Positions 20,050-57,622 of a stretch of DNA of 64,000 nucleotides are shown piece by piece. Position 1 is the stretch's first letter, and every line of letters begins with the position of its first letter. The stretch is from assembly GCA_964016885.1 (NCBI GenBank), contig OZ024746.1, forward strand, positions 7,440,001 to 7,504,000. Direction: 5' to 3'. The notes below the pieces were generated by a model. The model did no database searches, was not told the origin of the DNA, and saw only the letters and a program-made list of their open reading frames with translations. The position numbers and the translations under genes are program-made. This stretch comes from Eledone cirrhosa. Taxonomy: Eukaryota.

Positions 20050-20115
20050 TATTTTATCTGATGAAAGCGCACCATAATTTGCCTTGGTTGCCCTTGAAAT
20101 ATATATAATAAAATA
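20050..20115 (+). ncRNA. Type I hammerhead ribozyme motif, same family as 7473-7535
   Basis: TATTTTAT CTGATGA(20058) aagcgcacca..tggttgccctt GAAA(20096) TATATA TA ATAAAATA. Confidence 0.8.
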
Positions 20116-34844: not shown

Positions 34845-35044
34845 NNNNNNNNNNNNNNNNNNNNNNNNNNNNNNNNNNNNNNNNNNNNNNNNNNNNNNNN
34901 NNNNNNNNNNNNNNNNNNNNNNNNNNNNNNNNNNNNNNNNNNNNNNNNNNNNNNNNNNNNNNNNNNNNNNNNNNNNNNNNNNNNNNNNNNNNNNNNNNNN
35001 NNNNNNNNNNNNNNNNNNNNNNNNNNNNNNNNNNNNNNNNNNNN
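34845..35044. other. Assembly gap (200 N)
   Basis: Run of N. Confidence 1.
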
Positions 35045-42697: not shown

Positions 42698-44480
42698 GGT
42701 AGTGTTGAGAATGAATGGGAGAGAGAGAAACTACCCCCAGTAGACCCGGCAGAGGGACCAGCTATTGAGATTGATGACTATAGGCTCAAAGAGGCAATTA
42801 AGGAAATGAAAAGTGATAAGGGCGCTGGACCATCAGGGATAGTTACTGAGATGCTAAAGGCATCAGGAGAAGTAGGAACAAAAAATGGTTGCACGCATCG
42901 TCAATCAAACTATATATGGCGGAGTCATACCCAAATACTGGTGCAGCAGTATTCGTATAAATTGCTACAAAGGTAAAGGGGATGCTCTGGAGAGGAGCAA
43001 TTACAGGGGCATAAAACTGATGGATCAGGTTATGAAAGTGACAGAAAGAATACTAGCGCAACTAATTAGAGAAAGGGTCAAATTAGATGAGATGCAGTTT
43101 AGTTTTGTGCCCGGGAAAAGTACAACAGATGCCTTCTTCTTAGTGAGACAACTACAAGAGAGGTTCTTAGAGAAGAATAAGCCACTATATTTAGCTTTTG
43201 TTGACCTAGAGAAGGCCTTTGATAGAGTACCCCGATCTGTCATCTGGTGGTCCATAAGGAAACTAGGTGTAGAGGAATGGCTTGTGAGGACAGTGCAAGC
43301 TAGGTACAGAGGTGCTGTCAGTAAAGTGAGAGTAGGAATAGAGTTTAGTGAGGAATTCCAGATACAAGTAGGAGTACATCAGGGTTCGGTCCTCAGCCCG
43401 CTCTTGTTCATTATAGTCCTCCAAGCCATAACAGAGGAGTTTAAGACTGGCTGTCCATGGCAACTTCTCTATGCTGACGATCTGGTTCTTATAGCAGAAT
43501 CAGTAGAAGAGCTAGAGAATAAATTCTGGCTATGAAAACAGCAGTTCTAATCAAGAGGACTGAGAGTGAACCTAGCTAAGACTAAAGTGTTAATAAGTAG
43601 AAAAGAGGACAAAACTCTGATTTCATCAGGGAAATGGCCATGTTCGATATGTAGAAAAGGAGTTGGCATAAATTCTATAGAATGTACACAATGTAGAACT
43701 TGGGTACACAAGAGATGTAGTGGGATAGCAGGCAAACTAACAGGTAGGGAAAACTACATATACAGTAGGTGTTCAGGGAAATTTGACAGTAGAAGTCGCA
43801 GCGATAGACGCATTTTTCAAATGCAGGTAGGATCTATATATGTGGTTGATAGCTTCTGATACCTAGGTGATCAGATTAGGAAGGGAAAAATGGGAGGATG
43901 CTCCGAGGCCATAGTATCTAGAATAAGGACAAGATAGAAGAAGTTTAACGAGCTGCTCCCTCTGTTGACAATGAAGGGTTTCTTCCTGCGAACGAAAGGT
44001 CGGTTATATGATGCCTGTGTGAGATGCGCGATGTTGCATGGTAGTGTGACATGGGCAGCAACTGCGGAGGATATGCGACGGCTGGAGAGAAATGAAGCAA
44101 GCATGCTCCGTTGGATGTGTAATGTCAATGTGCATGAATGACCAATCATAGCCGAGTTGAGAGAGAAATTGTGTATAAGAGGGATAAGCTGTAGTGTGCA
44201 GGAGAGAAGACTGCGTTGGTATGGACATGTGATGCGCATGGAGGATGGCGGCTGGGTAAAGAAGTGCCAAGAAATGCCAGTAGAAGGAAGACGCAGTAGA
44301 GGTAGACCACGAAAATCATGGGCGGAGGTGGTGAGAGCTGACCTCAGATCACTGAAGCTCACGGAGGAGATGACGAAGAACCGTGACGAATGGAGAGATG
44401 ATGTGCTGAATAGGACCCGTCCCACCCTTGCAAGCAGGGAAAAGCGGATATAAAATGATGATGATGATGAGGATGATGAT
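42698..44480 (+). mobile_element. 5'-truncated RTE-clade LINE, RT pseudogene with Cys-rich (PHD-like) segment and (ATG)n tail
   Basis: NYRGIKL, AFVDLEKAFDRV, GVHQGSVLSPLLF, LLYADDL, KWPCSICRKGVG..C..C..WVHKRC, RLRWYGHVMR, RGRPRKSW; several stops and frameshifts. Confidence 0.95.
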
Positions 44481-56771: not shown

Positions 56772-56954
56772 ATTAGAAATAGAAGCTTTCGCCATATTTT
56801 TTTACTGAAGAAATTCTGGCCTGATAGTGGGGTTTAGAACCCTCTAAGAAATGGAAAAACATGAGTATTGACATACATGTCTGTCAATACTCATCTTTTT
56901 ATCAGGCTAAAATTTCTTTAGTAAAAAAATACGGCGGAAGCTTCTATTTCTAAT
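56772..56954. repeat. Nested foldback: 55-bp outer arms plus 13-bp inner hairpin
   Basis: 56772-56826 / 56900-56954; ATGAGTATTGACA / TGTCAATACTCAT. Confidence 0.85.
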
Positions 56955-57172
56955 TTCAAACTCGCTCGCTGTTTCAAAACAAACTTACTTTATATATATA
57001 TATATATATACATTTAGAAACACACAGATACATGCGGACACACACATATATACATGAATGCATCCGCACCCAACTGTGAGTTAAGGGTGCCAACTTCACC
57101 GATGTTGCTCAATGAATGACTGGGACAGACCAATTCAGTTTGAACCAGACTGAACCAGTATCAGAGTTAAAA

Positions 57173-57564
57173 ATACATTATGAAGAGAGAAGAAACATTT
57201 AGATATAATTAGTAATAAAATGTATCATACCTAAACTGTTCCTAAATTCCTCGACTACGTAGTTTCGTGGCATAAACAAAAACAATATATCAAAGATATA
57301 GAGTCCTTGCGAGGTCTGCCGACTTATCAAGAGGATACCTCATTTTACTAGTCTCAAGAACGCGTCTACACGACGTGAGAAAGAATCCCAAAAGGCGGAG
57401 GGGGAGATAGTCACGTGATATAACGGTCGAGAAACAGAGCTAAATATCTTTGATATATTGTTTTTGTTTATGCCACGAAACTACGTAGTCGAGGAATTTA
57501 GGAACAGTTTAGGTATGATACATTTTATTACTAATTATATCTAAATGTTTCTTCTCTCTTCATA

Positions 57565-57570
<6 letters not shown>
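57173..57570. repeat. 127-bp apparently perfect inverted repeat (57173-57299 / 57444-57570)
   Basis: Arm-by-arm reading finds no mismatch. Confidence 0.92.
57248..57335 (-). ncRNA. Type I hammerhead ribozyme motif with U3-A8 core variant
   Basis: rc TCCTC TTGATAA GTCGGCA..TGCCAC GAAAC TACGTA GTC GAGGA. Confidence 0.7.

Positions 57571-57622
<52 letters not shown>

Follow-up and report, generated by a model that had tools for sequence, protein, structure and literature searches.

A perfect inverted repeat associated with a hammerhead ribozyme motif raises the question of what produced it, and of whether the U3-A8 pair in the ribozyme core is a recent local change or an inherited property. The repeat lies in the window, the stretch of 64,000 nucleotides of DNA analysed here, and the genome holding it measures 3.0 Gb. 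A preliminary description placed the structure at 57173-57570. The arms 57173-57299 and 57444-57570 are complementary at 127 of 127 positions, as had been described, and pairing falls to the background level on either side. The extent had been drawn too short, as the minus-strand arm continues to about 57013. We consider it probable that the window carries a truncated head-to-head insertion of a 591-bp non-coding tandem unit, likely a non-LTR retrozyme moved in trans by Neptune-type Penelope-like elements (PLEs). The insertion consists of the following parts.

57013-57570, no strand assigned: whole insertion of 558 bp, two 5'-truncated pieces of the 591-bp unit, head to head
57013-57443, sense on the minus strand: long arm of 431 bp, unit positions 326-591 then 1-165, stopping at end B
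57444-57570, plus strand: short inverted arm of 127 bp, unit positions 470-591 and 1-5, stopping at end A
57173-57299, minus strand: inverted-repeat stretch of the long arm, whose sequence overlap with the short arm is the 127-bp perfect repeat
57013-57172, minus strand: one-sided "tail" from 3' end A to 3' end B, about 160-165 nt
57443-57444, no strand assigned: head-to-head junction, blunt in the window copy
56991-57012, no strand assigned: left (TA)n target tract
57568-57621, no strand assigned: right (TA)n target tract, its first bases common to end A

Both 3' ends face outward, into (TA)n. Hairpins are predicted in the tail, the last one directly ahead of end B, and the short arm holds just the 3' half of the hammerhead (57477-57495). 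The window copy is 99.5-100% identical to the reference 591-bp unit and is therefore young. It is shorter than one unit, as is the long arm by itself, which makes propagation unlikely; the copy is likely a dead end. In its read-through RNA, the 3' half of the hammerhead is predicted to be buried in a hairpin of 127 bp. The second 3' half that had been pointed out does lie on the other strand, but it is predicted to pair with the hammerhead in this RNA and to block it. With the 3' half predicted to be blocked and no full unit obtainable, the window copy is likely inert.

The hammerhead motif itself is laid out as follows.

57248-57335, minus strand: type I hammerhead motif with a 5-bp helix I, a U3-A8 core, a long helix II and a palindromic helix III
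57335-57331, minus strand: 5' strand of helix I
57330-57324, minus strand: core UUGAUAA, with U3 at 57330 and A8 at 57325
57323-57317 GU(c)GGCA with 57272-57267 UGCCAC, minus strand: helix II, with one bulged base
from 57266, minus strand: GAAA of the hammerhead core
57263-57254, minus strand: helix III palindrome ACUACGUAGU, 10 nt
57253, minus strand: C17, with predicted cleavage after 57253
57252-57248, minus strand: 3' strand of helix I

Three helices surround the core and helix I is open, as in type I hammerheads. In the usual numbering of core positions (U4 to H17), the bases U4, G5, A6, A9, G12, A13 and A14, the A15.1-U16.1 pair and H17 are all present; GUA replaces GUC in one of eight representative rows, and the 3-8 Watson-Crick pair is U-A in all eight. 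The minus-strand hammerhead with a U3-A8 core is thus borne out by its sequence layout and by a descriptor scan, which gave three matches over both strands of the whole window: this motif and two canonical CUGAUGA motifs. Rfam returned no hammerhead match in the window or the region, even at E values up to 10, and the earlier point that a CUGAUGA search would miss the U3-A8 motif holds for Rfam as well. The 106-nt piece 57240-57345 by itself is about as stable as its shuffles (z = -0.6), and the hammerhead fold (-20.7) lies 1.1 kcal/mol above the predicted minimum (-21.8). The helix III palindrome is predicted to contribute -12.9 kcal/mol between two units and -0.7 within one. Since helix III is of this dimer type, a single-copy construct of 57240-57345 may cleave poorly even with a working ribozyme. 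The motif is predicted to be a self-cleaving type I hammerhead, with a core variant that has already been described elsewhere.

A search of the genome with the minus arm identified near-identical copies on many contigs, some of them in tandem with a 591-bp period. Exact matches number 7,696 for the 3' half of the hammerhead and 7,094 for the 5' half with the U3-A8 core, and reversed controls for both halves gave none. The unit has a GC content of 41%, below the 45-50% used as the ceiling for retrozymes, and is non-coding, its longest stop-free frame being 86 aa in a dimer. The available text of Li et al. (2026; bioRxiv 10.64898/2026.07.22.740005) describes a pipeline in which non-LTR retrozymes are tandems of at least two units in a row with a period of up to 1,000 bp. 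Tandems of this kind, each with an entire type I hammerhead, occur at L002, L022 and L187; this arrangement belongs to the family, and the window copy, being under one unit, is a truncated member of it. Insertions of the family have no flanking LTRs. The unit has no ORF with RT and GIY-YIG endonuclease and is therefore not filed as an autonomous PLE, and its insertions show the PLE-type features of 5' truncation, partial tandems, an inverted truncated copy, a one-sided tail and a microsatellite target. Folded as a circle (22 shuffles for each value), the unit gave z scores of -5.6 sense and -1.0 antisense; a subfamily B unit gave -4.7 and -2.4, and an old subfamily D copy showed the opposite bias, -2.1 sense and -3.5 antisense. 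In two sequencing runs whose type is not recorded, the whole unit is covered by one contig of 620-621 nt; as either tandem DNA or a circle could give this, it was given no weight. The 591-bp repeat is likely a non-LTR retrozyme and likely a parasite of Penelope-like retrotransposons.

The core variant is shared throughout this family. A check of the relatives for UUGAUAA, proposed at the outset, found it kept in the 7,094 exact matches, with no C3-G8 in the family among the position-3 and position-8 variant matches. Position 3 deviates from U in 15 matches, 14 with A8 and one (CUGAAGA) in unrelated sequence, and position 8 deviates from A in 14, each of which retains U3. The changes are single and scattered, and come from searches that cover the family's 57-nt helix II. 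A search that combined this helix III with a canonical core and a short helix II gave no matches at spacers of 8-38, a range that excludes the family's own helix II. The homologous older subfamilies B, C and D (75-83% identity to A) and E (about 60%) also keep U3-A8. As the pair persists across five subfamilies, the most distant at about 60% identity, and in a clade of autonomous PLEs described below, we read it as old, inherited and clade-wide in this genome.

Eight copies were chosen to represent subfamilies A-E, and 99.3% of their 143 cells are paired. Both sides have changed at 7 of 18 pairs, which lie in helices I-III, and U3-A8 is invariant. The count of both-sides changes is reached by 27 of 500 shuffles, a marginal control, and the covariation score by none of 500; the events are few because the subfamilies are related. 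At its centre, helix III reads ACGU, GCGC (53 exact matches) or GUAC, a palindrome every time, and these four positions would be unpaired in the loop of a monomer but base-paired in a dimer. That the palindrome shifts only into other palindromes points to a dimeric ribozyme, although there are two such events only and a CG-to-UA change could also come from double CpG decay. Judged by these alignments, selection on the ribozyme is supported by the covariation of helices I-III across subfamilies. The original argument for selection had rested on the 3-8 pair, which never varies (8/8 rows) and contributes nothing to it. Two tandem pairs, G000:C5:39920688/39921285 and G000:C19:18237721/18238312, carry the same position-8 mutation in both of their units, which suggests that core-mutant templates were inserted.

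The anatomy of insertion was followed on contig C1 in 53 cases, drawn in order of position from the hammerhead-half matches listed, with one segmental duplicate left out. There are two fixed sites for the 3' end, A lying 80 nt and B about 245 nt beyond the cut site, and both run into (TA)n; the 5' ends are variable. Inverted structures were called in 25 of the 53 and not called in 28. Non-inverted insertions end at A in 16 cases, at B in 13 and elsewhere in one. Script calls for the inverted insertions gave 19 with A+B, one with A+A, none with B+B and five in which one end could not be assigned. In the A+A case (L158) a longer segment stops at B, and L045, among the A+B calls, is a neighbouring copy of an older subfamily. 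Different ends on the two arms in 19 of 20 inversions with both ends at A or B correspond to p = 4e-5. A best-hit set gave 12 inverted insertions among 21, of which ten are A+B, one is B+B (L009) and one is unresolved. Arm lengths and junctions vary from locus to locus, and the junctions have overlaps of 1-7 nt in 16 of the 25 inverted C1 insertions. An apparent hotspot of 5' truncation at unit position 326 in the best-hit loci was discarded as partly query bias; the C1 sample has a broad cluster at about 260-340, in a histogram inflated by nine duplicate L167 rows.

Arms of the same insertion are closely alike. Across 69 insertions, divergence is 0.47% within an insertion (52/11,038 sites) and 1.8% between insertions (4,323/240,047), and 12 of the 31 inverted insertions have perfectly matching arms. 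An identical pair of 127 bp is thus ordinary. The identical arms had been taken as a sign of recent origin or of gene conversion; the youth of the copy stands, and gene conversion is unnecessary, since identity is a normal product of insertion. Private variants in the same 69 insertions occur in all units of their insertion in 21 cases (14 spanning both arms), in one unit only in 82 and in some units in two. At L187, private variants are common to up to 8 units on both strands. Variants shared between units and arms likely reflect a single template for all. They fit repeated copying of a circle, and homogeneous source arrays outside the sample could be an alternative.

A second young tandem family was observed in this genome, with a 543-bp unit and a canonical CUGAUGA core (L243 and L301-L325; for example L314:1733-2290). 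It has a 10-nt palindromic helix III and ends in (TA)n and (TC)n, and its unit folded as a circle gave z scores of -6.1 sense and -4.4 antisense. Over 23 loci, its inverted insertions follow the two-end rule in all nine simple cases, and four are complex or unresolved.

GIY-YIG matches are abundant in the genome (10,595 candidates). One locus, L136 (G000:C1:145868500-145878000), has a 938-aa frame with GIY-YIG and with RVT_1 at 28 bits, just below the cut-off. The frame is apparently frameshifted near its start, and the repeats are 97.8% identical. A CxxxxCxxC motif lies ahead of the endonuclease, as the available text of Craig et al. (2021; PMC8557442) gives for Neptune and Nematis. Both 1-kb repeats of L136 carry a hammerhead of another sequence that is likewise U3-A8 (UUGAAAA). 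The element has two 3' ends in (TA)n, of which the first lies 82 nt beyond the cut site, and four clear inverted copies have one site per arm. L136 is an autonomous Neptune-type PLE and a candidate driver family. In a tree of 93 endonuclease rows, made by a quick search from the last 190 aa only and midpoint-rooted, U3-A8 is found in 56 of the 57 motif-bearing rows of a 75-row GIY-YIG clade, and the exception is likely a nested insertion. The hammerhead pattern search gave no motif in the other 18 rows of this clade, nor in an 18-row sister clade. One autonomous PLE subclade (L114, L116, L132 and others; 13 tree rows) has an additional core change, GCAA for GAAA, alongside U3-A8, a hammerhead type with at least 21 matches. 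A pseudo-LTR homologous to the unit was absent from 110 loci sampled from the 150 listed of the 10,595 GIY-YIG matches, and when the GIY-YIG loci were compared with the unit by blastn and tblastx, the matches listed were nested copies and related non-coding families. These searches brought up no autonomous element homologous to the unit in its DNA, so that the driver is inferred from what the unit and L136 have in common, namely the U3-A8 core, the (TA)n target and the end spacing.

We propose that tandem copies of the 591-bp unit would be transcribed, and that adjacent hammerheads would pair through their palindrome and cut out a 591-nt unit, which would then likely be circularised. A borrowed RT-endonuclease would nick both strands of a (TA)n tract, and the same RNA would be primed for two cDNAs, one at site A and the other at site B. 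Both cDNAs would stop at variable points and then be joined head to head, so that the inverted repeat would be the overlap of the cDNAs, 127 nt in the window copy. A more specific version, in which one RT-endonuclease dimer acts on one circular RNA with two start sites, one per nicked (TA)n strand, is offered tentatively, as plausible but slightly short of probable. With one start site per target strand, each arm must end at a different site, and the count is 19 of 20 in the 591-bp family, nine of nine simple cases in the 543-bp retrozyme and four clear cases in L136. The 165-nt spacing of A and B indicates that the two start sites need not adjoin. If this proposal is correct, the insertions are a genomic record of how PLEs build inverted repeats.

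The same element and driver could instead work with an RT that copies an uncleaved linear tandem read-through RNA, with a weak or protein-assisted hammerhead and no circle. For another PLE, the available text of Frangieh et al. (2024; PMC11167929) reports that hammerhead mutants had no effect on insertion in vitro and that the ribozyme needed protein, and PLE hammerheads have low in vitro activity according to the available text of Cervera and de la Pena (2014; PMC4209133). The two tandem pairs with identical position-8 mutations also suit such a route, by which core-mutant RNA may have been inserted. We nevertheless regard it as unlikely, because the L187 variants, present in so many units on both strands, are most simply explained by one unit recopied, and because the helices and the palindrome covary across subfamilies, which places the fold under selection.

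The preliminary description favoured a young, functional ribozyme at this locus with a fresh compensatory core change and arms held identical by gene conversion. The perfect arms and the high identity of the window copy to the reference unit agree with it, and U3-A8 is an accepted pairing (Perreault et al. 2011; PMC3088659, in its available text). This reading is nonetheless very improbable. A fresh origin is contradicted by the occurrence of U3-A8 in thousands of copies, in five subfamilies and in the clade of autonomous elements; the pair marks a PLE clade in this genome and had been published before (PMC3088659, PMC4209133). Perfect arms recur in 12 of 31 inverted insertions, and the predicted hairpin of the read-through RNA buries the 3' half of the hammerhead. 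A DNA-level repeat, either a MITE-like foldback or a satellite with a relic hammerhead, is suggested by inverted arms and TA-rich flanks like those of foldback elements and by tandem arrays like satellites, but it is scarcely credible given arm lengths and junctions that differ per locus, asymmetric ends (A on one side, B on the other), variable 5' truncation with 28 of 53 insertions not called inverted, strand-biased folding in the young subfamily, and no fixed terminal inverted repeats of a DNA transposase family. The MITE and gene-conversion readings were rejected on the C1 anatomy and the arm-divergence counts.

The retrozyme reading can be compared with known systems, as the available parts of the respective papers describe them. 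Animal non-LTR retrozymes and their circles have been described (Cervera and de la Pena 2020; PMC7229834), and Li et al. regard retrozymes as non-autonomous PLE derivatives. Like them, the 591-bp family consists of non-coding tandem units of low GC content with one type I hammerhead each, in thousands of copies and with PLEs in the same genome. It differs from them in its U3-A8 core and very long helix II, in a unit longer than the 150-450 bp quoted (PMC7229834), and in that about half of its insertions are head to head with two fixed ends; the word "inverted" is absent from the main text of PMC7229834. PLE hammerheads with a palindromic helix III were brought together with a dimer model in PMC4209133, which also reports the U3-A8 variant, with about 1,300 hits in Schistosoma mansoni, and a contact between loops 1 and 2 that is absent or unrecognisable in many of them. 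The 591-bp motif shares with these hammerheads the short helix I, long helix II, G10.1-C11.1, palindromic helix III and U3-A8, as well as opposite-strand motif pairs 100-700 bp apart. Unlike them, it has no extra base between positions 9 and 10.1, its 10-nt palindrome could form a 3-bp helix in a monomer, and it lies in a non-coding unit instead of beside an ORF. The same compensatory U3-A8 pair was found by Perreault et al. as natural covariation and is stated to be active in vitro; here it is clade-wide over many transposon families of one animal genome. The U3-A8 hammerhead is thus already known, also in PLEs, and the inverted repeat is explained.

PLEs themselves form inverted copies, often with a tail of 30-40 bp at one end and with a bias to microsatellites, and the formation of their tandem and inverted structures is called undefined in the available text of PMC8557442. 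In vitro, the PLE of PMC11167929 has two RT start sites, which are alike on both strands, and both target strands are nicked and extended; hammerhead cleavage was unnecessary for insertion, and no RNA-seq reads ended at the cut site. The 591-bp insertions resemble those of Neptune-type PLEs in their partial tandems, inverted 5'-truncated copy and microsatellite target, and in a tail at one end that matches two RT start sites. The unit differs in having neither RT nor endonuclease, and its tail is about 165 nt instead of 30-40. One site per arm was counted in 19 of 20 cases here, in contrast to the lack of a strand difference in vitro (PMC11167929). A literature search at the level of main texts listed no paper on the 591-bp family or on a counted one-site-per-arm rule; an earlier description may exist in supplements or repeat databases.

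The family is young, has thousands of near-identical copies and is missed by Rfam and by CUGAUGA descriptors. The dimeric hammerhead model is supported by natural covariation in the family at positions that lie in a loop and could pair with each other only between two units. The countable end rule and the shared private variants bear on how PLEs form tandem and inverted structures, and a short RNA and a candidate, intact-looking driver are to hand for a bench test.

Several further elements were observed. A GC-box-like stretch and a CACGTG palindrome lie upstream of the hammerhead, at 57394-57419, and we take them to be a possible internal promoter; CACGTG also lies upstream of the hammerhead in subfamilies B, D and E, the 543-bp family and L136. 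The two canonical CUGAUGA hammerheads of the window, at 20053-20110 (plus strand) and 7532-7478 (minus strand), are related and have an A-UAUAUA-U palindromic helix III. About 1.1 kb upstream of the latter lies a GIY-YIG remnant (8639-9034, minus strand), and this proximity likely indicates a different PLE lineage. An RVT_1 fragment of another retroelement is located at 42876-43535 (plus strand), and a 200-base assembly gap (N run) at 34845-35044 is distant from the insertion. The window-wide repeat finder was swamped by satellites. Directly to the left of the insertion, a 55-bp inverted repeat (91%) at 56772-56952 is likely a small foldback element.
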